DNA of 31,488 nt, taken from the IMG/VR virus record IMGVR_UViG_2778261316_000005; one strand, 5' to 3'. Below, one piece after another: positions 17,951-31,488 of the stretch. Numbering within the stretch: position 1 is the stretch's first letter; each line of letters opens with the position of its first letter. A model generated the notes under the pieces. That model had not been told where the DNA came from. It saw only the letters and a list, made by a program, of their open reading frames with translations, and ran no database searches. A program made the translations under genes and the position numbers. The DNA comes from a virus (taxonomy: Duplodnaviria; Heunggongvirae; Uroviricota; Caudoviricetes).

Positions 17951-19000
17951 TTATGCGCCGCCTTCCGGCGCCTCGGCAAAGGTAATGCCGTCAATGAATG
18001 CGACGTTGCCGTAGTCCTCGATCACAAAGTCATCATTCGATGACTGATAAGTCGCAATACGGTTGTATTCCGGCTCTTCCTTGATCGTCCGGCGCAGTCC
18101 GCCGCGCTGGTAGTACACGGACAGGTTTTTAAACGGCGTGATCAGTACGCCATTGACCGGGAAGTACGGCGCGATAAAGGTCGGCATATTGCCGACACGT
18201 TCCTGCGCGACAATCAGCTGACCGGCCAGCATTTCGGTGTTAGGGTTGGTCTGGCTCATGGCGTTAATCGCCGGGAAGTTGCCGGTGGTCAACAGGTCGC
18301 CCGCCAGGATCACCACGTTGTCAGGATTACGTTTGTGCCATTCATCCATCAGGCTATTTTTGGCGTCGTATACCGCCGCGCCCAGGTTGCCGTAAGTCCC
18401 TTTCGCAATAACCTTGTTATCTTCATCACGCGAGGTGATCGTGACGCCAGAAATCACGCGGTGTGAGGCTTCCGTACGGATTTTCTCCAGCCAGCCGATA
18501 CCACAATCCTGCAACAGCGGGTTAGCCGCGCGGTCTGATGGATCGCTGTATTTGGTGCCGTTGAAACCGATCATGATGCGGTCAAGTGACATCTGGCGAG
18601 CCATCGCCTTGCTGATTAGAGGCTGGAATTCCGGCATATGCGCCCAGGCATCAAGCTGTTCATAGCTGATCCCGTAGTCGTAGTTGACCTTACGGCACAT
18701 GTAATCAAACGGCTCCATTGAATGGTTAGCCCCTGGATTACGACGGTTGGTGGTGCTGTTGTTAACGCCAGCCATCGGGCCTTTGCTGCCAATCAGCACT
18801 TTCTGACCAATCTGCTGATTAACGCCAAACACGTTAATTTTGCTCAGGAAAGAATCACTCTCCTGTGCGGCCTGCTCCATGCGCTGCTGACGCGCCGGGT
18901 CTACCGCAAATTTCGCAGCGACTGCCGCAGCCGATACGCCGTTTAAGCGCGCCTGTTGCGCAATGTACTGATCAAACAGCTGGCGGGTATTGTTTTCCAT
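17951..19000 (-). CDS. N: major capsid protein gpN
   Basis: 349 aa; …MIGFNGTKYSDPSDRAANPLLQD…GWL…NLSVYY… matches P2 gpN. Confidence 0.95.
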   Translation of the reverse strand: MENNTRQLFDQYIAQQARLNGVSAAAVAAKFAVDPARQQRMEQAAQESDSFLSKINVFGVNQQIGQKVLIGSKGPMAGVNNSTTNRRNPGANHSMEPFDYMCRKVNYDYGISYEQLDAWAHMPEFQPLISKAMARQMSLDRIMIGFNGTKYSDPSDRAANPLLQDCGIGWLEKIRTEASHRVISGVTITSRDEDNKVIAKGTYGNLGAAVYDAKNSLMDEWHKRNPDNVVILAGDLLTTGNFPAINAMSQTNPNTEMLAGQLIVAQERVGNMPTFIAPYFPVNGVLITPFKNLSVYYQRGGLRRTIKEEPEYNRIATYQSSNDDFVIEDYGNVAFIDGITFAEAPEGGA

Positions 19001-19023: not shown

Positions 19024-19857
19024 TCAGTAATCAGCCAGCTGCGCGTTGGCGCCGCCGTTCGCAGGTGGTCGCTGACTGAAGGAAGCTTCAGTGCTCCCCA
19101 GCTTCTGGCGCAGCTCCGCAAGCTCGGTGGTCAGCTTCTGGATAGCGGCCTTATCCTCCTGGCGCTCCTGCTCTGCGGCATTGAAGCGATCAATTTGCTC
19201 GGATTGCGATTGCGCGACCGCCTCAACGACCTGATGCATCTGACTGAAGCGCTGATCGTCCGTTTTCTGACCTTTGCCAATGATGCTCATCACGCGATTA
19301 AACCACTTAACACCTTCATCGCTGTGCTGGGCGGTCAGCTCGATCACCTCTGCTTCAAGCGCTTCGGTGAACATCGGCGCCTCACCCTGCTGGTTATTGA
19401 AGGCCATCACCGATGCACGCTGCTGTGAGGCAAATTTAAGACGCTCAGTACCCAGGCTCGCCGGGGTATCGGTCATTGCCAGACCGACAACATAGGCTTT
19501 GCCGTTGAGGGCAAACTGCGGATGCAGCTCAATACTGGAATAGACTTTTTGCCCTTTGTCGGTCATCTGCACCATGCGCTCAGATGGTTCGATCTCGGCA
19601 TAAAGCGCGGTACGTCCCGCCAGCGCACCTTCGGTGATGTCTTCAGTGCTGAGGGCTACGACATCCCCCATCGCGCCAAAATCGCTGTTCGGGAACATAG
19701 AGAGATAGTGCTCAATGTTGACCCGCGCGCCATACACCTCAGGGTTGTAATTTGCTGCCGCATCGCGAAGGTGCTGCGGTTGAATTTCGCGCCCGTCGAC
19801 GGTATTTCCGGAGACGGCCACGCGAAACTTCTTACGTGGTTTTGCTGTGCCTGCCAT
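19024..19857 (-). CDS. O: capsid scaffolding protein gpO
   Basis: 277 aa; position and composition typical of P2 gpO; divergent from P. Confidence 0.9.
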   Translation of the reverse strand: MAGTAKPRKKFRVAVSGNTVDGREIQPQHLRDAAANYNPEVYGARVNIEHYLSMFPNSDFGAMGDVVALSTEDITEGALAGRTALYAEIEPSERMVQMTDKGQKVYSSIELHPQFALNGKAYVVGLAMTDTPASLGTERLKFASQQRASVMAFNNQQGEAPMFTEALEAEVIELTAQHSDEGVKWFNRVMSIIGKGQKTDDQRFSQMHQVVEAVAQSQSEQIDRFNAAEQERQEDKAAIQKLTTELAELRQKLGSTEASFSQRPPANGGANAQLADY

Positions 19858-20017: not shown

Positions 20018-21739
20018 ATGGCGATTGAAGAAGCATTCATCATGCAGCGTGCACGACAGCTTTACTGGCAGGGCTACCCGCCAGCAGAGATCGCACGCCT
20101 GATGGGGATCAACCAGAACACGGTTTACTCATGGAAAAAGCGAGATGAATGGGACGCCACACCGCCGATCCAGCGCGTGACAACATCCATTGATGCCAGG
20201 CTAATTCAGCTCACTGGCAAAGACAAAAAGACCGGCGGTGATTTCAAAGAGATTGACCTGCTCACCCGTCAGCTGAAAAAGCTGGATAACGGCACAGCGG
20301 CCACCCAGCCGAAGAAAAAGATCCGCAAAAAGCAAAACTATTTCTCAGAGTCGCAGATTGCCGCGTTGAGGGAGAACATTCTCGGCTCTCTGCACTGGCA
20401 CCAGAAAGGGTGGTATGACAATCACCACTGGCGCAACCGTATGATCCTGAAAAGCCGTCAGGTTGGTGCGACGTGGTATTTCGCGCGTGAAGCTCTGGTG
20501 CGCGCCCTGTCTGAGGATGTGAAATACAAGCATCAGCGCAACCAAATCTTTTTATCGGCAAGCCGCCGCCAGGCGTACCAGTTTCGCAGTTTCATTCGCT
20601 CGGCCGCCGAAGAAGTTGATGTGGAGCTTAAGGGCGGCGACATGATCCAGCTGTTCAACGGCGCCGAGCTGCATTTTCTTGGCACGTCAGCGGCTACCGC
20701 TCAGTCATACACGGGCAACCTGTATTTCGACGAATTCTTTTGGGTAGGCCAGTTTGCCAACCTGAAAAAAGTCGCGGGCGCTATGGCAACGCTAAAAGGC
20801 CTTACGCGTACCTATTTCTCCACCCCTTCAGCTGAAAGCCATGAGGCTTATCCATTCTGGACAGGTGAAGCATTTAACAAAGGTCGCAGCCATGGCAAGC
20901 GCATTGAGTTTGATACATCCTGGAAAACGCTTAACAGCGGCCTGATGTGCCCGGACAAGATCTGGAGGCAGATTGTCACGTTGCAGGATGCTATCGACCA
21001 TGGATGGGATCTGACTGATATCGACGAAATCCGGGAAGAGAACAGCCCGGAGGAATACGACAACCTGTACGGATGCCAGTTCATCAAAAGCGGTGAAAGC
21101 GCCTTTGACTATAACAGGCTACTGGCATGCGGCGCTGATGGTTATGACGACTGGCCCGACTGGCGGCCATATGCGGCCCGCCCCATGGCTGATCGTCCCG
21201 TCTGGATTGGCTACGACCCGAACGGCGCCAGCGGCAAGGGGGACAGTGGAGCCATATCCGTTAACGCTGTGCCGATGGTGCCCGGCGGCAAGTTCCGCAC
21301 GATTGAGACACTACGCATACGAGGGATGGAGTTCGAAGAGCAGGCCAATCTCATTATCGGCATGCTCACCCGGTACAACGTGCAGCACATTGGGATCGAT
21401 GGCACCGGTATTGGTGAAGCGGTTTATCAGCTGGTTAAAAAGCATTTCCCGGCAGCGGTTTGTTATCAGTTCTCACCGTCCAGCAAGCGAATGCTCGTGC
21501 TGAAGATGCAACAGCTGATTCGTGGCGGGCGCTGGGAGTTTGATCGTGGTGAGCTTGACCTGGTTGGTGCATTCAACTCTGTCCGCAAGATCGTTACCCC
21601 TGGAGGCGTTGTCACTTACGACACGGACCGCTCTCGCGGCGTCAGTCATGGCGATCTCGCATGGGCGACGATGCTTGCCACCATTAACGAACCGCTGGGA
21701 CAAGAAGGCGGCAGCAGTATGACAGTTACGGAGTATTAA
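20018..21739 (+). CDS. P: terminase ATPase (large) subunit gpP
   Basis: 573 aa; N-terminus ...LYWQGYPPAEIARLMG...SGGDFKEIDLLTRQL matches P2 gpP; GAGGAGG RBS. Confidence 0.95.
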   Translation: MAIEEAFIMQRARQLYWQGYPPAEIARLMGINQNTVYSWKKRDEWDATPPIQRVTTSIDARLIQLTGKDKKTGGDFKEIDLLTRQLKKLDNGTAATQPKKKIRKKQNYFSESQIAALRENILGSLHWHQKGWYDNHHWRNRMILKSRQVGATWYFAREALVRALSEDVKYKHQRNQIFLSASRRQAYQFRSFIRSAAEEVDVELKGGDMIQLFNGAELHFLGTSAATAQSYTGNLYFDEFFWVGQFANLKKVAGAMATLKGLTRTYFSTPSAESHEAYPFWTGEAFNKGRSHGKRIEFDTSWKTLNSGLMCPDKIWRQIVTLQDAIDHGWDLTDIDEIREENSPEEYDNLYGCQFIKSGESAFDYNRLLACGADGYDDWPDWRPYAARPMADRPVWIGYDPNGASGKGDSGAISVNAVPMVPGGKFRTIETLRIRGMEFEEQANLIIGMLTRYNVQHIGIDGTGIGEAVYQLVKKHFPAAVCYQFSPSSKRMLVLKMQQLIRGGRWEFDRGELDLVGAFNSVRKIVTPGGVVTYDTDRSRGVSHGDLAWATMLATINEPLGQEGGSSMTVTEY

Positions 21740-21741
21740 CC

Positions 21742-22794
21742 TTGAGCAAACAAAGACCCACACGCGGCAGGAAGTATGCCAGGGAGCAGGCAGATCTCGC
21801 CGCCTCACTGAAAGCGTCACCGGAGCTGAACTCATTCACCTTCGACGGCCCATGGCCGGTGAGTGGTGCCAGCGACCTGCTTGATAACATGTATTGCGCA
21901 GACAACGGGCGATACTACGAAACCCCTATTGACTGGTATGGCCTCGCCCGTCAGTTTGGCTATGCGAGCTGGCACCAGTCGGCGCTTTATTTCAAGCGCA
22001 ATGTCCTTGCCGGATGCTTTATCCCGCACAAACTTCTTTCCCGCCAGGTGTTCTCCGCCTTCGCACTGGACTGGTTTGTCTTCGGGAATGGCTATCTTGA
22101 GATGCGAAAAAACTGGCTTGGTGGTTCCTTTGGCTTTCGTCACTCGCTGGCGAAATACACACGCCGTGGTTCTGACCTGGACACTTACTGGTTTATTCAG
22201 GCCGGGCTACAGGATCACATGTTTTCAACGGGTTCGGTATGTCACGTTCTCAGCCCGGATATTCACCAGGAAATATACGGCATGCCTGAGTATTTCGCTG
22301 GCCTGCTGTCTGCAAACCTGGCCCATTCTGCTGACAAGTTCAGAAAGCTCTACTACGACAACGGCTCGCACGCTGGCTGCATCGTCTACGTTAACAGCGC
22401 GATGGCCGACCAGGAGAGCCTTGATAAGCTCAAAAAGACGCTGACGGATACCCGGCGCGGCGGGGCGTTTAAGAACATCCTTCTGCACGCACCTAACGGC
22501 GGCAAAGACTCCGTGCAAATACTGCCATTCAGCCAGATATCGGCTAAGGATGAGTTTGTGGGGGTGAAGTCTTCCACCCGCGATGACATGCTGGCAGCGC
22601 ACCGGGTGCCGCCGCAACTGATGGGAGCCATTCCGGAAGGGAACGGTTCATTCGGTGATATTGAGAAAGCGGCTCGCGTGTTCGCCGTCAACGAGCTGAC
22701 ACCCTGTATGGAGGCCATGAAGCATGTTAACGACTGGCTGGGTGAGGAGGTGATTCGCTTCAACCCTTACGCATTGCTTGAACCCACGAAGTAA
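21742..22794 (+). CDS. Q: portal protein gpQ
   Basis: 350 aa directly downstream of P; probable TTG start 9 nt after GGAG. Confidence 0.9.
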   Translation: MSKQRPTRGRKYAREQADLAASLKASPELNSFTFDGPWPVSGASDLLDNMYCADNGRYYETPIDWYGLARQFGYASWHQSALYFKRNVLAGCFIPHKLLSRQVFSAFALDWFVFGNGYLEMRKNWLGGSFGFRHSLAKYTRRGSDLDTYWFIQAGLQDHMFSTGSVCHVLSPDIHQEIYGMPEYFAGLLSANLAHSADKFRKLYYDNGSHAGCIVYVNSAMADQESLDKLKKTLTDTRRGGAFKNILLHAPNGGKDSVQILPFSQISAKDEFVGVKSSTRDDMLAAHRVPPQLMGAIPEGNGSFGDIEKAARVFAVNELTPCMEAMKHVNDWLGEEVIRFNPYALLEPTK

Positions 22795-23027
22795 TCTCCT
22801 GGCCGCATCGTCATTTCTGGCGGTGCGGTACCACCCTCAGCACCATCATTTCCGGCCATATCGGCCACTCGCGAAACACAAATAAACCACACCCCCTACC
22901 AGACGCAGCCAGCGGGCTTCTGGCGCGACTTCTCTCGCGCTGCCGCTTCGCTCAACCATCAACATGAGCGCCCGACAGGCGGCGAATGGCGGATGATATG
23001 ACCCCCTGCCTGACCCCCTTTGCGCGC

Positions 23028-23047
23028 GCTTGCTCCCCCGCCTCGCC
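23028..23047. other. cos site (P2-type 19-nt cohesive end region), intact in the prophage
   Basis: Minus-strand reading GGCGAGGCGGGGGAGCAAGC closely resembles the P2 cohesive end GGCGAGGCGGGGAAAGCAC; located between Q and the early region as expected. Confidence 0.6.
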
Positions 23048-23066
23048 TGCGCGCTAAACCGACCTC

Positions 23067-23170
23067 TTTTTGTGCACTTTGTGCAGGCCGCCCAGGCCCC
23101 GCCAGCGCTGGGGCGGCATGGAAAAAACGTTGTTTCAAAAATTGTGCAAATTTGTGCAACTTTTTGCATC
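23067..23170. repeat. cos-proximal direct repeats of TTGTGCA (putative terminase recognition, cosB-like)
   Basis: Four to five copies (tttgtgcac, tttgtgcag, attgtgcaa, tttgtgcaa, ttttgcat) within about 100 bp next to cos; ACCCCCT-type repeats on the other side (22890-23020). Confidence 0.5.
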
Positions 23171-23185
23171 CGCGCGGCCCCATTT

Positions 23186-23422
23186 TTACACCTGATCAAC
23201 CTCGCCGAGCGCCACCATGATCGCCAGGCGTTCGGCAGGCGGTAACGCTGCAAATTTTTCCTTCCAGCGCTGCGCTTTTCGCTTAATTCGATAGCGATCA
23301 TTGTAATTTTTACCTGCAAAAGTATGCGGATAAGCGCGCCCCTCCTGGTAGTTCATCCAGATTTTCTCCGTCCTCACCCCGCCGCGCGTCATTGCCTGAA
23401 ATTCTTTGCTGCGCCAGCCCAC
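23186..23422 (-). CDS. hypothetical protein at the position of the P2 tin/old accessory locus
   Basis: 78 aa ORF between the A-linked small gene and cos; no recognisable family; basic. Confidence 0.4.
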   Translation of the reverse strand: MGWRSKEFQAMTRGGVRTEKIWMNYQEGRAYPHTFAGKNYNDRYRIKRKAQRWKEKFAALPPAERLAIMVALGEVDQV

Positions 23423-23495
23423 TAACGTTTCGTCATAAAGCTGCGACGGATAGCCAGAAAGGATAACGCTGACGTTCTCCGGCAGACCAGCGCCC

Positions 23496-23711
23496 TCACA
23501 GCTTCATCAGGTTTTTGATCACAATCCTGGTGACAAGGCTGTTGTTCTGCTTAGCTTTTTCCAGGATATAAGCGCAATGCTGGTCTTTAAGCTCATCTGG
23601 ATTGACACATTGCCCCGCCCCATGCTCAACGGTTACCGATCCATTGCCGTTATAAACAATGCGCCCTTCTGCGTCGTACCCTTCGAAGTAGCTGATATAA
23701 CTTGATTTCAT
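23496..23711 (-). CDS. hypothetical protein translationally coupled to the 3' end of gene A
   Basis: 71 aa; ATGA overlap with the A stop. Confidence 0.5.
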   Translation of the reverse strand: MKSSYISYFEGYDAEGRIVYNGNGSVTVEHGAGQCVNPDELKDQHCAYILEKAKQNNSLVTRIVIKNLMKL

Positions 23712-26365
23712 TTTCGCTCCTTAGCATCAATCCCGGCTTTTCGCTTAGCCGCCTTCTTCCAGCGCGTGACCAGGTCACACACCGCCATATATTCAGACGT
23801 CGGTTTATCTTTCTCACCGGCACGCCATGCCTTCACTTCCTGCAACCGGCCATTGCTCATGGCGATCAGTCCACCGCCGTGGCGAACGCGGGCACCGCCA
23901 GCAATCGACCTCACAACGTCATCGCTGACGAAAATCCTGCAACTACGCAGCTGCGCGCCGATGCTGGCGATGGTTTCCTGGCTGACTCCGCCTTGTTTCG
24001 CAGCCTCTCTTTTCTGTACCTGCCGCAGTGCCGCTTCGGCTTTTTTCTTCTGATATTCCGCAACAGCTGCGGCATAGTTATCCGCACGCCGCTCCGCTTC
24101 AGTCCGCAGCTGTTGCCGCCAGCGCTGTTCTGCCTCTTCCGGTGTCAGGCTCATATCTTTCGCAGCGACCACTTTTGGCCCCCACGCCAACGCAGTTTCA
24201 TCATCAACAGACGTGCGTAGGCCGCGCGCGGTACGCTCGAAGGCATGATCTGAGCTTTCGCGGCCAATGTTTTTCAATCTGCTGGTGATTTCCTGCCGCT
24301 GCTGGCGTGAATATCGGCGCAAATCTTCGATATTCAGCGGAAGTTCTGTCATCTGACTGTCCGGGTGATCAATACCGGCATGCATCGTCGGTTTTGACGG
24401 TGTGGTACCAGCTGGCACCGCCACTTTTAACGGTGGTTTTTCGTCCGTTCTGGAGCGCCCCGTACAGTTATTGACAGAACTCCGAGGGGCCGCTGCGCGG
24501 CCTTCTAAGGTCAAAATCTCGACCGGCGACGGCTTACGCTTCGGCACAATCTTGTAATCGGTGGTGCGGGTGAAAATGACGGATTCGCTGCCCGTATAAG
24601 GGCAATAAACGCCAGTAATTTTGGCGACCGTGTCACCATAATCATTGCCGTTTTCGGTGAATTCATAGTTAAGCCGAACGCGCAGGCAATCGCGCGCGAC
24701 AAATGGCCCGCCCTGAGCATTGGTATATCCCGGCCAGTCTGGCGCATCGGCTGCGGCGCGTGCCGCTTCCAGCTCCGGATGCAATACCAGCTCGCGGTCA
24801 CCTAACCGGCGCAGCTCCCGCCAGGTGGTCACCGGCGCGCCGCCAATCTGCTGAAACTGGCGGATATTCCAGCGTGAAGCCCAGGCACGCACGCGCTTTG
24901 CCATATCCCTGACTGGCTGGCCTGATTCAAGATCAAGCTCACCATCCATGCCGTATCCGTCGATATTTTTGGAAATGTATTTGGCGATGTAGCCCGTCGC
25001 CGAACCAAATTGCTCGTCGATTGGCTTAACGGTAAAGCGGTGCTCCTGTGCCCCCGGCTCCTGCCCGTCTTCTCTCATGGCATGCTTACGGAAAATGGCT
25101 GTTGCATAATCCACTTCCTCAGGACGGAGGAAGAGCAACAGGTGCCAGTGAGGGGTTCCATCGTGGTGTGGCTCTGCAACACGAAAACCAAACGTGCGGA
25201 TACCTTCGCGACTCCATTTGGCTCTGACGCGCGCCCAGACTTTGCAAAGGTATTTTTGCGTCTGCCGCGGGCTGACGTGCTGGTACTTATCGTTTCGTCT
25301 GCCTGACTGGACATGCGTTGAGTGGTAACGCGACGGCGCTGTCAGTGTGTAGAACATGCCAACCAGCCCCATTTCATTCGCCATATCCTCAAATCCGCGC
25401 ATGCGCACCATCAGCTCATGCCGCGCGATCTTCGGGTTGGAAACACTACCCATCACCTTATCCAGTAATGAGCTGCGCTCGCCAGTGTCCTGGTCTTCCA
25501 GCTCCATCGCCTGAAGGAATTCGAAGTTCGCTTTTTTCTGCGCCACCCATTCCCTGAAGCAGGGATCAGAGCAATATGGTGAAGCCACTTTGCTGACGTA
25601 GCCGGTCGCGATCATTAGATGTTCGCGCCAGCAGTCATGGATGCGGCGGATTTTGTTAAGCCACCATTTTTCGGAATGAAGTCTGCCGGCGGCACGCAGC
25701 GCCTCGTCGGCGTCCAGTTCTTCGTCGCAATAACGCGCCCACCCTGGGATCGCGATATTGAGCGTCGCCGCTTTGCTCGCTATAGCCCCGTACGCGTAAA
25801 TCGACGAAAACTCGAGATCGGATGTTTGCTCATACTGAAAATCAAACTCGCGCATAAACTCGCTTTTCATCAGGTTCGCAAGCTTATACGCCAGTCTTTT
25901 CAGGCGCTTTTTGTCCGCCCACGGCAGCAGGTGAAATTCATCACGCAGCGGAAGAAGAAGCGCCGGGAGCGTACTTTGTGGGAGGTATTGCGCGTTAACC
26001 GCATCAACACGGCGTAAGACATGCCGCTCAAACGTACCGAACAGCCAACGCACGACGTCTTTTGGCTTGCTGCGTTCGAGGTTTTCAAGGTGCTGCGAGA
26101 AGCGCTTACGGATAAACGCCGGGAGCGTTTGCACCCGGCGGCGGAGGTAGTTAGCGCGGCCATTTCGATCAAATGCCTCACGCGCATCGCCCTCGCGCGG
26201 GCGCAATGGCGCGCGGTATACCGTATCAACCAGATCACCATAAGCGAGCGCCCTGCGCTCGCCTTTCGGTGTCAGATACTCAATGGCTGAACTTTCGGTT
26301 TTATGGGGGTTGATGGCCTGCCGTTTGGTATTCCATTCCCATGCTAAGACGGTGAGATCTGACAT
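23708..26365 (-). CDS. A: replication initiation protein gpA (rolling-circle nicking endonuclease)
   Basis: 885 aa; HUH motif region ...VAEPHHDGTPHWHLLLF... and active-site tyrosine region ...GYIAKYISKNIDGY... as in P2 gpA. Confidence 0.9.
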   Translation of the reverse strand: MSDLTVLAWEWNTKRQAINPHKTESSAIEYLTPKGERRALAYGDLVDTVYRAPLRPREGDAREAFDRNGRANYLRRRVQTLPAFIRKRFSQHLENLERSKPKDVVRWLFGTFERHVLRRVDAVNAQYLPQSTLPALLLPLRDEFHLLPWADKKRLKRLAYKLANLMKSEFMREFDFQYEQTSDLEFSSIYAYGAIASKAATLNIAIPGWARYCDEELDADEALRAAGRLHSEKWWLNKIRRIHDCWREHLMIATGYVSKVASPYCSDPCFREWVAQKKANFEFLQAMELEDQDTGERSSLLDKVMGSVSNPKIARHELMVRMRGFEDMANEMGLVGMFYTLTAPSRYHSTHVQSGRRNDKYQHVSPRQTQKYLCKVWARVRAKWSREGIRTFGFRVAEPHHDGTPHWHLLLFLRPEEVDYATAIFRKHAMREDGQEPGAQEHRFTVKPIDEQFGSATGYIAKYISKNIDGYGMDGELDLESGQPVRDMAKRVRAWASRWNIRQFQQIGGAPVTTWRELRRLGDRELVLHPELEAARAAADAPDWPGYTNAQGGPFVARDCLRVRLNYEFTENGNDYGDTVAKITGVYCPYTGSESVIFTRTTDYKIVPKRKPSPVEILTLEGRAAAPRSSVNNCTGRSRTDEKPPLKVAVPAGTTPSKPTMHAGIDHPDSQMTELPLNIEDLRRYSRQQRQEITSRLKNIGRESSDHAFERTARGLRTSVDDETALAWGPKVVAAKDMSLTPEEAEQRWRQQLRTEAERRADNYAAAVAEYQKKKAEAALRQVQKREAAKQGGVSQETIASIGAQLRSCRIFVSDDVVRSIAGGARVRHGGGLIAMSNGRLQEVKAWRAGEKDKPTSEYMAVCDLVTRWKKAAKRKAGIDAKERK

Positions 26366-26546: not shown

Positions 26547-26749
26547 CGGGTGGCGACCTCCCGAATCTCTTCGATTGAGTCAAGCAGCAGTCGACGGCGG
26601 GTATGTTCGGCAAAGTGACGTTTGCCGGTGTCTTTCCGGTAGCACTCTGTCTTGCCGACTACCCACATGGATTCCGTCTGGTGCAACTTCTTGCGCTGCG
26701 GGCCGTCTTTGGTAATAACGATGCCCGTATGAGTCTTTTTAATGGTCAT
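26543..26749 (-). CDS. hypothetical early protein (68 aa)
   Basis: Start overlaps the dam stop (TGATG); same strand in the tightly packed early operon. Confidence 0.5.
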   Translation of the reverse strand: MTIKKTHTGIVITKDGPQRKKLHQTESMWVVGKTECYRKDTGKRHFAEHTRRRLLLDSIEEIREVATR

Positions 26750-27714
26750 CAGAAAGGCTCCTGCGTTTCACAGCCCTTGGCAGGGTCGAAGCCTAAAAAC
26801 ATCTCGCCGTAAGTCGCATTCCCCATTACCGGCCCACAATCCGGGCAGCAACCACCGCCAGCACGATCGCAGCCATCACACACGCGAAGAACGCCAATAA
26901 CCTCGCCAGCCATATCGCGGCTTTTGGCGCTCACAGAGCGGCGGACACTCAGGGAGTGAAGGTTGAAGGCGGAATAAATTTCGCGAGTTTCAGGCGTGTC
27001 GCTGTTTGAGATGATCGAGCGGGTGGCGTACTGACGGTTAACAGCCACAAGAGCCGCTACCAGAGCGCGATGATCAACCAGGGTAAAGGGTTTGCCGTAA
27101 GCGGTGAAATTGGCGGTATCGCTCGCAGGAATATAGGGCGGGTCACAATAAATCACCGCGTCATGCGCGAGTTGCATAACGTCAGGGATAGATTGGCGGA
27201 AATCACTATGGATAAAGACCGCTTTTGTGTCGCTGGCCTTTTCGGCGAATAAGCGCATTTCCGCTTCAGGAAAGTAAGGCTCGGCATACTTACCGAATGG
27301 AACGTTGAATTCGCCCTTCCGGTTAACGCGATACAGACCGTTATAGCCATGGCGATTCAGATACAGGAAATACGCGGCATAAAGCATTGCTGCGTCCGGA
27401 TCAGAGTCAGCCTGGCGGGCCAGTGAATTGAACTCTGTGCGCCGTCTGTAGTATTCCTCCGCACTGTTTCCGCCTTTGAAAGCCCAGCGGCAGGCGGCAA
27501 TAGCGTCTTCTTTGCGGCCGGTTAATTGTCGGAAAAAATTAATCAGCGCGATATTGCTGTCGCAGAGAACGTAGCGGCGGTAATCCGTGTTCATAAACAC
27601 AGTTCCACTACCCACAAACGGCTCAATCAGACAATCCGCTTTCGGCAAATGCTTAAGCAGCTGCGGCATAACGCGGGTTTTTCCTCCCGCCCATTTGATT
27701 GGCGATCTGATCAT
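26749..27714 (-). CDS. dam: Dam-family DNA N6-adenine methyltransferase with a Cys-rich C-terminal extension
   Basis: …IKWAGGK…, …EPFVGSGTVF…, …LYLNRHGYNGLYRVNRKGEFNVPFGKY…, …YCDPPYIP… align with E. coli Dam; extra C-terminal tail with CDGC…CCPDC. Confidence 0.9.
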   Translation of the reverse strand: MIRSPIKWAGGKTRVMPQLLKHLPKADCLIEPFVGSGTVFMNTDYRRYVLCDSNIALINFFRQLTGRKEDAIAACRWAFKGGNSAEEYYRRRTEFNSLARQADSDPDAAMLYAAYFLYLNRHGYNGLYRVNRKGEFNVPFGKYAEPYFPEAEMRLFAEKASDTKAVFIHSDFRQSIPDVMQLAHDAVIYCDPPYIPASDTANFTAYGKPFTLVDHRALVAALVAVNRQYATRSIISNSDTPETREIYSAFNLHSLSVRRSVSAKSRDMAGEVIGVLRVCDGCDRAGGGCCPDCGPVMGNATYGEMFLGFDPAKGCETQEPF

Positions 27715-27950
27715 TTGCGAAACTCCTGGTTGTAGGTTTCATGGGTCATGAGTCGCCACTGAGCGCCGCCGTTTTTGCTAAGCAAGCGCCAGCGACGGCC
27801 AATGCGGATCACGAGATAGGCGTGCGGTTTGACGCGGGAGAAGTTGTGCTGACCACGTGAAAAACATTTCAGGGCGGCAATCGCCCTGGTGCATACAGGC
27901 AATGGCGCGCTGCAAACGATTGAAAGACGCGGATGCATGGTGGCCCTCAC
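27711..27950 (-). CDS. hypothetical protein (79 aa), coupled between the exonuclease-like gene and dam
   Basis: GTGA overlap with the upstream stop and ATGA overlap with the dam start; no recognisable family. Confidence 0.4.
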   Translation of the reverse strand: MRATMHPRLSIVCSAPLPVCTRAIAALKCFSRGQHNFSRVKPHAYLVIRIGRRWRLLSKNGGAQWRLMTHETYNQEFRK

Positions 27951-28495
27951 AATGTTTCAAGGTGAGGGGAGGTCAGACGTTGCCATATCTCGCAGGCTTG
28001 CTCGGCTTGATAGGCAGCATCGGTCAACATATAGGTAGCCGTTGACCTACGTGGATGGGGGGCATAACCGGTAACGCCTGCCAGCATGATCAGAGAGGCA
28101 AGGCAACGCAGTTTGAATGCGACGAATTGATGTCCCAAATCGTGCCTTCTTGCCGCATGGATTAACCACTGCGGCACTCGACCAGAGCCCACAGTCCAGC
28201 AATTCAACTCGGTATGCAGGGAAGCATTTTCGCGAATGAAGGAAAAAAGCCCCGCTACCGCATTAAGTTCAGTGCATGTCGCAGAGATAACCTCTGCTCT
28301 TTGATGGGCATCTCCTTTAAGCAGCTCCAGCACTGCTTCTGGATCGATATATTCAACAGTGCGAAGGTCTACAGCCCGATAATATTGCGGGCCTAACTTT
28401 CCTGTTGATGGCTCGAAGAAAACACACTCAATAGCAAAGATTGGCGAATCTGGCGCTTTCCCCAGCGCTCGAATATCTAACATGAAGTTATTCAT
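27947..28495 (-). CDS. putative DnaQ/DEDD-like 3'-5' exonuclease-fold protein (assignment tentative)
   Basis: 182 aa; N-terminal MLDIRALG… resembles the Exo I motif (D-x-E) but with Arg at the Glu position; H…D pair near the C-terminus. Confidence 0.5.
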   Translation of the reverse strand: MNNFMLDIRALGKAPDSPIFAIECVFFEPSTGKLGPQYYRAVDLRTVEYIDPEAVLELLKGDAHQRAEVISATCTELNAVAGLFSFIRENASLHTELNCWTVGSGRVPQWLIHAARRHDLGHQFVAFKLRCLASLIMLAGVTGYAPHPRRSTATYMLTDAAYQAEQACEIWQRLTSPHLETL

Positions 28496-29718: not shown

Positions 29719-29991
29719 TTAAAGCCCCATCCACAACAACCAGGCATCACGCTGTTCTACCGGGCGGTTGTAATACGCCTCACGCACAGCACGATTGAAC
29801 TCAGGGATGTAAACCCAGCGCTCACCGGCGCGTGCGTTCGGTTTGGTTGGGTCGCGCAGTTCAATCACTGGCAGCTTTCGGGCTTTGATCATTTCTTCTA
29901 CTGCGGTCTTAGGTTTGCCGATCAGCTCGGCGAACTTCTCCACATGGACAGCATCAAGCGGATATTTGATTGCGTAATCGCTCGCTTCCAT
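29719..29991 (-). CDS. cox: Cox-like excisionase / early transcriptional regulator
   Basis: …EKFAELIGKPKTAVEEMIKARKLPVIEL…RAGERWVYIPEFN…WLLWMGL matches P2 Cox; first gene of the early operon, divergent from C. Confidence 0.8.
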   Translation of the reverse strand: MEASDYAIKYPLDAVHVEKFAELIGKPKTAVEEMIKARKLPVIELRDPTKPNARAGERWVYIPEFNRAVREAYYNRPVEQRDAWLLWMGL

Positions 29992-30129: not shown

Positions 30130-30438
30130 ATGCAACCAAGTCAAATGAAAATGGGACAAAAACTAAGAGCGATCAGGAAAGCTGAAGGGGTAACCCAAGC
30201 AAAATTCAGTGAAATCACTGGTATAGCTCTAGGCACAGTAAAAAATTACGAAGGAGGTCACTCAGATCCTGGGATTCAAATCGTTTTGCAGGTAACCAAC
30301 ACACCTCAACTACAGAAATACACGCTATGGCTGATGACTGACAAAACCTCCCCGCAGGCTGGTCAGATTGCACCGGCCCTCGCGCACATTGGGCCAGACT
30401 CGCCGGAATCAGACCAATCCGAGAAACAGACTGGCTAA
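30130..30438 (+). CDS. C: C-type immunity repressor (HTH)
   Basis: …QLQKYTLWLMTDKTSPQAGQIAPALAHIG… matches P2 C (…QFTKYTLWFMTNQIAPESGQIAPALAHFG…). Confidence 0.85.
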   Translation: MQPSQMKMGQKLRAIRKAEGVTQAKFSEITGIALGTVKNYEGGHSDPGIQIVLQVTNTPQLQKYTLWLMTDKTSPQAGQIAPALAHIGPDSPESDQSEKQTG

Positions 30439-30507
30439 CAGTTTATAAACATTACATTTTCACTATTTGTTACCAAGATAGTGATATCTGCGCCGGAGGG
30501 CTTTCTT

Positions 30508-31488
30508 ATGTCGATTAAGAAGCTCGATGATGGTCGCTACATGGTGGACATTAGACCGCGCGGGGCAGCAGGACGCCGCATCCGCAAGACGTTTGACAGA
30601 AAGGCAGAAGCTACCGCGTTTGAGCAATACACGATAGCGAACGCCAGCCAAAAAGAATGGGCTGGTAAGCGCGCCGACCGGCGGCCTTTAAGTGAGTTGC
30701 TCGATGCCTGGTGGCGGTATCACGGGCAAAACCATGAAAACGGCAAAAAGGAATTCAATCACCTTTTGAAAACAATAAGTGGCCTCGGCGATCCCGCCGT
30801 TAGCCGGTTAAGCAAAAGGGATTTAATGGATTACCGCTCAAGCCGTTTGAATGCCGGGATCAAGGCATCAACGATTAATCGCGAGATGTACCGATTATCC
30901 GGCATGTTTACGAAGTTAATACAGATAGAGGAATTTAGCGGGCAACACCCTGTTAACGGGCTTCCACCACTGGCGGAAGAAAACCCGGAAATGACATTCC
31001 TGGAGCGGGAAGAGATCAACAGTTTGCTGAGCGTGCTGGAGGGGGATTATCTGTTAGTTGCCCTACTGTGCCTGAGCACCGGCGGAAGATGGTCAGAGGT
31101 CGCCACGCTTAAGCGGTCGAATATCGTTAACTGCCGCGTCACGTTCCTGAAGACCAAGAACGGGAAAAAGCGAACGGTGCCGATCTCTGAAGAGCTGGAA
31201 AACAAGGTGAAAAAAGAGGCCAGCGGGAAGCTGTTCAAAGTGGATTATGAAAGGTTCTGCAAGATACTGCGGGCGGTGAAGCCGGATATTCCGGAAAACC
31301 AGGCAACGCACATCCTGCGACACACCTTTGCAAGCCATTTCATGATGAACGGCGGGAATATTATCGCACTGCAACAGATCCTGGGGCATGCGAATATTCA
31401 GCAAACGATGGTCTATGCGCACCTGTCGCCTGACTACCTGCAAAACGCGGTTACACTGAATCCATTGCAGGGAGGAATTGCGGCATAA
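30508..31488 (+). CDS. int: tyrosine integrase (P2 Int family)
   Basis: MSIKKLDDGRYMVDIRP… versus P2 Int MAIKKLDDGRYEVDIRP…; C-terminal catalytic region …ATHILRHTFASHFMMNGGNIIALQQILGHANIQQTMVYAHLSPDYL…; GGAGGG RBS; stop codon at the window end. Confidence 0.9.
   Translation: MSIKKLDDGRYMVDIRPRGAAGRRIRKTFDRKAEATAFEQYTIANASQKEWAGKRADRRPLSELLDAWWRYHGQNHENGKKEFNHLLKTISGLGDPAVSRLSKRDLMDYRSSRLNAGIKASTINREMYRLSGMFTKLIQIEEFSGQHPVNGLPPLAEENPEMTFLEREEINSLLSVLEGDYLLVALLCLSTGGRWSEVATLKRSNIVNCRVTFLKTKNGKKRTVPISEELENKVKKEASGKLFKVDYERFCKILRAVKPDIPENQATHILRHTFASHFMMNGGNIIALQQILGHANIQQTMVYAHLSPDYLQNAVTLNPLQGGIAA

Follow-up and report, generated by a model that had tools for sequence, protein, structure and literature searches.

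In bacteriophage P2, the interval between the replication gene A and the cohesive-end site (cos) houses accessory genes, the P2 record placing orf91, tin and old between A and cosR. The corresponding gpA-gpQ hotspots of Escherichia coli P2-like prophages are 3.2 kb long on average and carry diverse defence cargo (Rousset et al. 2022, PMC9122126). Here, we analysed this interval in a 31,488-nucleotide (nt) stretch of viral DNA (IMG/VR record IMGVR_UViG_2778261316_000005; Caudoviricetes), which in its whole length is called the window below. A preliminary description of the window had reported for this interval two small open reading frames (ORFs) of 71 and 78 amino acids (aa), neither of them recognisable, and had raised the possibility that a single small protein at this position acts as an exclusion or defence factor, though it might as well be an ordinary small early protein; homology and structure searches and a comparison of related prophages had been suggested as ways to check this. 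We find that the locus is very probably an emptied, partly decayed P2-like accessory region made up of the 71-aa gene (orf71), a dead methylase fragment, an empty cargo slot and cos, and that it is an ordinary accessory locus and not a hidden defence system.

RESULTS

The gpA-portal interval holds a methylase pseudogene

The prophage is P2-like (Peduoviridae) with its map reversed relative to P2, and, judged by its position and bounding genes, the interval between gpA and the portal gene is the cos-proximal gpA-gpQ hotspot that is home to old and tin in P2. In related loci the portal protein carries PF04860. As the preliminary description had claimed, the content of the interval is minimal: the stop codons of the portal gene and gpA are 917 bp apart, where P2 has about 3.3 kb between the stop of A and cosR. 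The position of the hotspot had also been recognised correctly, but the span that had been given as running from A to cos in fact reaches the portal stop and includes cos together with both of its flanks. The two ORFs are present as they had been described (Table 1). Loci used for comparison bear L numbers, among which L001 is Klebsiella phage 3LV2017 (NC_047817), L003 is the prophage of E. coli PCP06171 and L004 is from E. coli C236-04A.

Contrary to what had been supposed, the 78-aa ORF could be recognised, and it proved to be a fragment of a methylase gene. Its frame continues open upstream to position 23494, giving 102 codons with no start codon, and this remnant matches the DNA methyltransferase profiles phrog_56 (6.9e-14) and PADLOC MTase_II (1.7e-7). 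In the nearest relative, the E. coli PCP06171 prophage (97.7% identical), the same 71-aa ORF is present together with a 102-nt spacer and a methylase gene that is intact and annotated as a 'DNA adenine methylase' of 231 aa; the remnant is 99% identical to residues 133-231 of this intact protein. In DNA searches, the same position in Klebsiella phage 3LV2017 and in the Salmonella phages SEN4/5, SI7, SW3 and SW5 was taken by the 3' end of a gene annotated as a DNA methyltransferase. The intact allele of the relatives resembles the Dam/DpnM family (D12 class) in that it matches TIGR00571 dam (below cut-off), PADLOC MTase_II and the DpnM structure of PDB entry 2dpm and has the DPPY motif; it differs from that family in its short length (231 aa) and in a basic C-terminal tail past the profile match. 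Motif I (HLGSGAV, near residue 30) and DPPY (residues 106-109) both fall within residues 1-129, which are deleted in the window. Because the start codon, the S-adenosylmethionine (AdoMet) motif and DPPY are absent, no enzyme can be made from the remnant. As had been noted, the 78-aa ORF is basic, with a net charge of about +8 by residue count on the translation, and no Shine-Dalgarno sequence is visible upstream of the GTG at 23422, the first start in the remnant frame. On this comparative evidence, we conclude that the 78-aa ORF is not a gene but a stretch that happens to begin with a GTG inside a dead Dam-family N6-adenine methylase gene (about 231 aa when intact), and that a functional product is not to be expected from it. 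A second Dam (321 aa) is retained by the phage upstream of gpA.

The methylase was truncated by a circulating deletion and has decayed repeatedly

The deletion can be read directly from a three-way alignment of the window with L003 and L004, in which 489 bp are gone from the window and the missing block is flanked on both sides by GGCAGAC in the relative. The loss took the spacer, the ribosome site, the start codon, the AdoMet motif and DPPY, and, by its GGCAGAC boundaries, it bears the signature of slippage or of a microhomology deletion. One could object that the apparent deletion is an assembly artefact or the private mutation of one isolate and that the methylase of the phage is intact, given that assembly can collapse repeat-bounded stretches and that the junction 32-mer was not found among the IMG/VR contigs. 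However, assembly collapse needs a repeat longer than 7 bp, and the identical 41-nt junction was present in four other, independent NCBI assemblies (L013, L014, L017 and L019, on contigs of 64-216 kb), all four of which share one and the same amino-acid difference in the remnant. The junction is therefore a circulating allele and not an artefact, and we regard the objection as highly improbable.

The same methylase has been broken elsewhere as well. It is independently inactivated in L012 (5319-6013) by a 1-nt deletion at nt 504, and by a frameshift near codon 183 in Klebsiella phage 3LV2017 (L001:6307-7003) and in 11 further Klebsiella phage records (Kp48xx series), which match the query identically. 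Altogether, the small Dam-family methylase downstream of gpA has been lost in at least three separate ways among related prophages, a repeated inactivation that suggests relaxed selection or selection against the gene.

The cargo slot beside cos is empty

The variable cargo of this lineage sits between the methylase stop and cos, where relatives carry 1-2.6 kb, and in the window this slot consists of 139 nt of conserved cos flank with no cargo. The slot shares with the P2 gpA-gpQ hotspot its position beside cos and a content that varies among relatives; unlike P2, the window has no cargo there, and no defence cargo family was matched. When the interval was searched with PADLOC, orf71 gave no defence-family match and the remnant gave only MTase_II.

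In several relatives the slot contains a gene for a Doc toxin (TIGR01550, 7.6e-17), preceded by a partner that is Phd-like by eye. This pair of Doc (Fic-fold) and partner was located at L008:6081-7024, L011:5327-6090 and L020:4330-5264, and it is transcribed from the cos side. A candidate conserved cargo-gene 'stub' by cos, which tblastn had returned with the first 37 residues of a 178-aa protein, was rejected as a miscalled N-terminal extension over conserved cos-flank DNA; the 178-aa Doc partner probably starts at an internal Met. In 3LV2017, an unannotated pair lies between cos and the methylase (L001:5537-6275), encoding, by eye, a 92-aa RelE/ParE-type toxin-like and a 124-aa helix-turn-helix (HTH) antitoxin-like protein. 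Two further slots hold uncharacterised proteins of 277 aa (L025:5270-6315) and 595 aa (L031:4364-6151), membrane-spanning by eye, and these two are better defence candidates than anything the window contains.

The interval retains a P2-type cos site

The cohesive-end sequence (Table 1), the 19-nt extent of which was set by analogy with P2, is by its agreement with P2 cosL/cosR a P2-type cos site, with predicted cleavage to 19-nt 5' overhangs. The 50 nt adjoining it are 86% identical to the annotated cosR region of phiCTX, and beside cos the sequence GCACAAAGTGCACAAAAAGAGGTC is shared with the phiCTX cosR flank, which bears a repeat-region annotation. The flank of cos that faces gpA contains TTTGTGCA repeats at 23069-23086 and 23141-23159 and a GC-rich palindrome at 23092-23121. 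As part of this flank is conserved with the phiCTX cosR repeat region, the repeats and the palindrome are likely to be terminase recognition elements. Eight other E. coli prophages have a 94.5% identical counterpart of positions 22795-23173, in which no gene is annotated. A weak terminator-like hairpin was seen at 22885-22910 on the minus strand, within a scan the counts of which stayed in the chance range, and no Rfam family was found in 22600-23900.

orf71 is an accessory gene at the end of the early operon

The coupling of the 71-aa ORF to A had been noticed correctly. The ATG of orf71 (23711-23709) overlaps the TGA of gpA (23710-23708) as ATGA, and an AAGGAG Shine-Dalgarno sequence (23717-23722) stands 5 nt before this ATG. 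The exact protein is annotated as 'MULTISPECIES: hypothetical protein [Enterobacteriaceae]' and occurs in Citrobacter, Enterobacter, Salmonella and E. coli assemblies, and homologues of 61-96% identity are present in Klebsiella, Raoultella and Enterobacter. The gene is under purifying selection, as pairwise ratios of nonsynonymous to synonymous substitution rates (dN/dS) are 0.05-0.2 where dS is informative. A profile search of 1.84 billion proteins yielded 36 cluster representatives at E < 1e-3, nearly all of them stand-alone proteins of 63-85 aa. From an alignment of 19 homologues, the family pattern is a stand-alone protein of about 65-75 aa with an N-terminal MKSxYISYFEGYD...GNG and a C-terminal RIVIKNLMKL, and orf71 has all of these features.

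While homology searches identified the 78-aa ORF as a methylase remnant, orf71 was left with a confident structure model and no family match. The AlphaFold2 model of orf71 is a compact beta-beta-alpha-beta fold (predicted local distance difference test score 88), for which fold comparison gave no informative match. There were zero matches in Pfam, PHROGs and PADLOC (E <= 1) and in NCBIfam (E <= 0.1), a profile search of the PDB sequences returned nothing below E = 0.9, and no homology was detected to the 82-aa ORF of SEN5. The accessions of orf71 and the methylase were not found in the supplements of Rousset et al. A link to YD-repeat (Rhs) proteins, prompted by a YDxxGR(I/L) motif and by matches to long proteins, was rejected; those long-protein matches are spurious, being adhesins with immunoglobulin-like, cadherin or LapA repeats that lack YDxxGR(I/L). 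The P2 gene orf91 (DUF3850) is like orf71 a small ORF right after gpA, with a 4-nt overlap, at the tail of the early operon; it differs from orf71 in its length, given in the record as 109 codons, and in its domain, orf71 having no Pfam match, and BLASTP between the two is non-significant (E = 19). By these comparisons orf71 is an analogue of P2 orf91 by position and not a homologue, and it is, as far as conservation and family membership tell, a genuine, uncharacterised accessory phage gene.

The comparison across related prophages, which revealed the deletion and the variable cargo of the slot, also revealed that orf71 is accessory. It had been considered that both ORFs might be core genes in relatives; instead, orf71 is absent from E. 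coli C236-04A and from Klebsiella phage 3LV2017 despite near-identical flanks (gpA, spacer and methylase). By tblastn it was found in no isolated peduovirus of the phage collection, and only 1 of 5426 complete E. coli genomes covers it. In the P2-like loci that have it, orf71 without exception lies downstream of gpA and points in the same direction, also where the identity of gpA is only 30-34%. It follows gpA directly with an ATGA overlap in some loci, including L008 (gpA 30% identical), is placed after the methylase in L011, L020 and L030, and is present with no methylase in L029. In L021 and L022 (3925-4025 in both), orf71 starts 24 nt past the gpA stop, because a run of A among the last gpA codons differs in length (A5/A4). 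This one-base A4/A5 difference (window 23735-23745) sets the end of gpA, such that gpA of the window is 8 codons longer (885 versus 877 residues matched) and the ATGA overlap results.

Distant homologues of orf71 (35-50% identical) were found in unrelated, non-P2 phages. Gp05 of Pantoea phage vB_PagM_AAM22 (QDH45580.1) and QIC52798.1 of Acinetobacter phage LAPP1 are of the same size as orf71, 42-50% identical to it over the full length, and share its N-terminal MK(S/Q)xY(I/F)(S/T)Y and C-terminal R(I/V)VIK motifs; unlike orf71, they belong to non-P2 phages of about 49 kb and have no gpA upstream. In both phages, a cluster of small genes ends with the homologue and converges on the genes for head morphogenesis, portal and terminase. 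In L032 and L033 the homologue (L032:3998-4204) is flanked by a Mu-F-like gene and the head gene that follows, and in L035 (538-1068) it comes just before the small terminase gene, as a domain that forms the C-terminal part of a 176-aa called product. With the homologues at L005:3501-3719 and L006:3501-3710 included, a place beside packaging or head genes is a repeated pattern among the distant homologues. Taken by its gene contexts, the distribution of orf71 is that of a mobile accessory gene landing at operon ends and module boundaries.

Neighbouring genes

The features of the interval and its surroundings are collected in Table 1. Upstream of the 321-aa Dam gene, two early-operon genes occupy 27711-28495 on the minus strand, and their counterparts in relatives are annotated as toxin-like, of the ParE family (about 75-79 aa), and as an Rv2179c-like exonuclease (182 aa). 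As no antitoxin is obvious for it, the toxin-like gene within this phage early operon may merit attention.

Table 1. Features of the gpA-portal interval and its neighbourhood in the window
Feature	Position	Strand	Remarks
Capsid	17951-19000	-	Left of the interval
Scaffold	19024-19857	-	Left of the interval
Large terminase	20018-21739	+	Left of the interval
Portal (gpQ)	21742-22794	+	One boundary of the interval; 99.7% identical to the annotated phage portal protein in L003
Portal-side cos flank	22795-23028	none	Non-coding; no ORF with homology
cos cohesive-end sequence	23029-23047	-	GGCGAGGCGGGGGAGCAAG; first 12 nt equal P2 cosL/cosR GGCGAGGCGGGGAAAGCAC (12/12)
gpA-side cos flank	23048-23185	none	Conserved; empty cargo slot
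Methylase 3' remnant	23186-23494	-	Pseudogene; 102 codons and stop, no start; encloses the 78-aa GTG ORF (23186-23422)
Deletion junction	23481-23487		GGCAGAC, the 7-bp direct repeat bounding the 489-bp deletion, of which one copy is left; alignment with L003 and L004
orf71	23496-23711	-	71 aa, ATG; last intact gene of the early (replication) operon
gpA replication endonuclease	23708-26365	-	Other boundary of the interval; Pfam Phage_GPA 1.9e-104, phrog_91 4e-259
Two small ORFs			Right of gpA, before Dam
Dam (321 aa)	26749-27714	-	Right of gpA; followed by further early genes
cox-like gene	29719-29991	-	
Repressor-like HTH protein	30130-30438	+	
Integrase	30481-31488	+	

DISCUSSION

In P2-like phages the early operon is repressed in the lysogen. 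Because orf71 stands at the end of this operon and is coupled to gpA, it would be made with the replication protein after induction or infection and not in the quiescent lysogen, being translated through its own Shine-Dalgarno sequence and the ATGA overlap. On the strand of orf71, no promoter-like site was found upstream of the gene by a crude consensus scan, and promoter and terminator scans of the locus gave site counts no better than chance. The arrangement differs from that of P2 old and tin, which are on the opposite strand and have their own promoter with mapped transcript starts. We propose that orf71 may be a small soluble and non-essential protein that serves the lytic cycle as an accessory factor by binding other proteins; a part in host modulation or in counter-defence is the role to which we tentatively lean, short of calling it probable, and a sizeable part of the remaining expectation goes to some other function or to no measurable function at all.

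Several points weigh against this account of the locus. Expression from the early operon only is deduced from gene order and from knowledge of P2; the promoter scan was a crude consensus search, and an internal promoter within gpA is possible. The homologue in L032/L033 lies in a head module and is expected to be late, so timing is not conserved across the family. As for the pseudogene, low-level translation of the 78-aa GTG ORF would be compatible with the sequence alone.

The proposal that orf71 is a single-gene exclusion or defence factor at the tin/old position, expressed in the lysogen and blocking superinfecting phages, draws on its place within a hotspot rich in defence cargo and on its being accessory, patchily distributed, under purifying selection and without an assigned function. 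Yet orf71 has no PADLOC match, and it overlaps gpA in the same direction with no promoter-like site of its own having been found, whereas old and tin of P2, like the Doc and 595-aa cargo of the relatives, are encoded by the other strand and beyond the methylase, towards cos. It is the stretch from the methylase to cos, and not the site of orf71, that forms the real variable cargo slot of this lineage, and homologues of orf71 reside among clustered small genes or within head modules in non-P2 phages, the Pantoea and Acinetobacter phage isolates among them. We therefore consider a defence role quite unlikely and the less fitting of the two readings that the preliminary description had offered, while its other suggestion, an ordinary small early protein, fits orf71 better. 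It is also unlikely, if a little less so, that orf71 is a partner of gpA or of packaging, for example a cofactor of rolling-circle replication or a factor in the hand-over from replication to packaging. A partner role would explain why the gene is tied to the 3' ends of very different gpA genes, with the ATGA overlap kept beside gpA proteins only 30-84% mutually identical, and elsewhere to terminase, portal and MuF genes, members of the family standing beside head or packaging modules in AAM22, LAPP1, L032/L033 and L035. However, orf71 is wholly missing from close relatives in which gpA, cos, portal and terminase are near-identical, and from every isolated peduovirus in the phage collection; the methylase separates orf71 from gpA in some loci, and insertion at operon ends and module boundaries is common to accessory genes in general.

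Beyond the lytic-cycle accessory factor that we propose, a wider and rather doubtful picture may be drawn, in which orf71 founds a new phage family of about 70 residues that moves between unrelated phage types and settles by replication or packaging modules. Its members could be anti-defence or host-takeover effectors or, less likely, minimal exclusion factors, and the losses of the methylase could have been selected, for instance as an escape from methylation-dependent restriction, as opposed to neutral decay.

The present analysis removes a false lead, in that what had looked like a basic unknown protein of 78 aa is a piece of a pseudogene. Nothing sets orf71 apart from the many uncharacterised small phage proteins, and the result is of little weight in itself. 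It does provide a case of a prophage without cargo at a hotspot known for defence genes, and it resolves the gpA-gpQ interval of this lineage into two parts, an extension of the early operon, which holds orf71 and the orphan methylase, and a variable slot by cos. For the automated mining of such hotspots this means that genes of the early-operon extension are not defence candidates by position alone.
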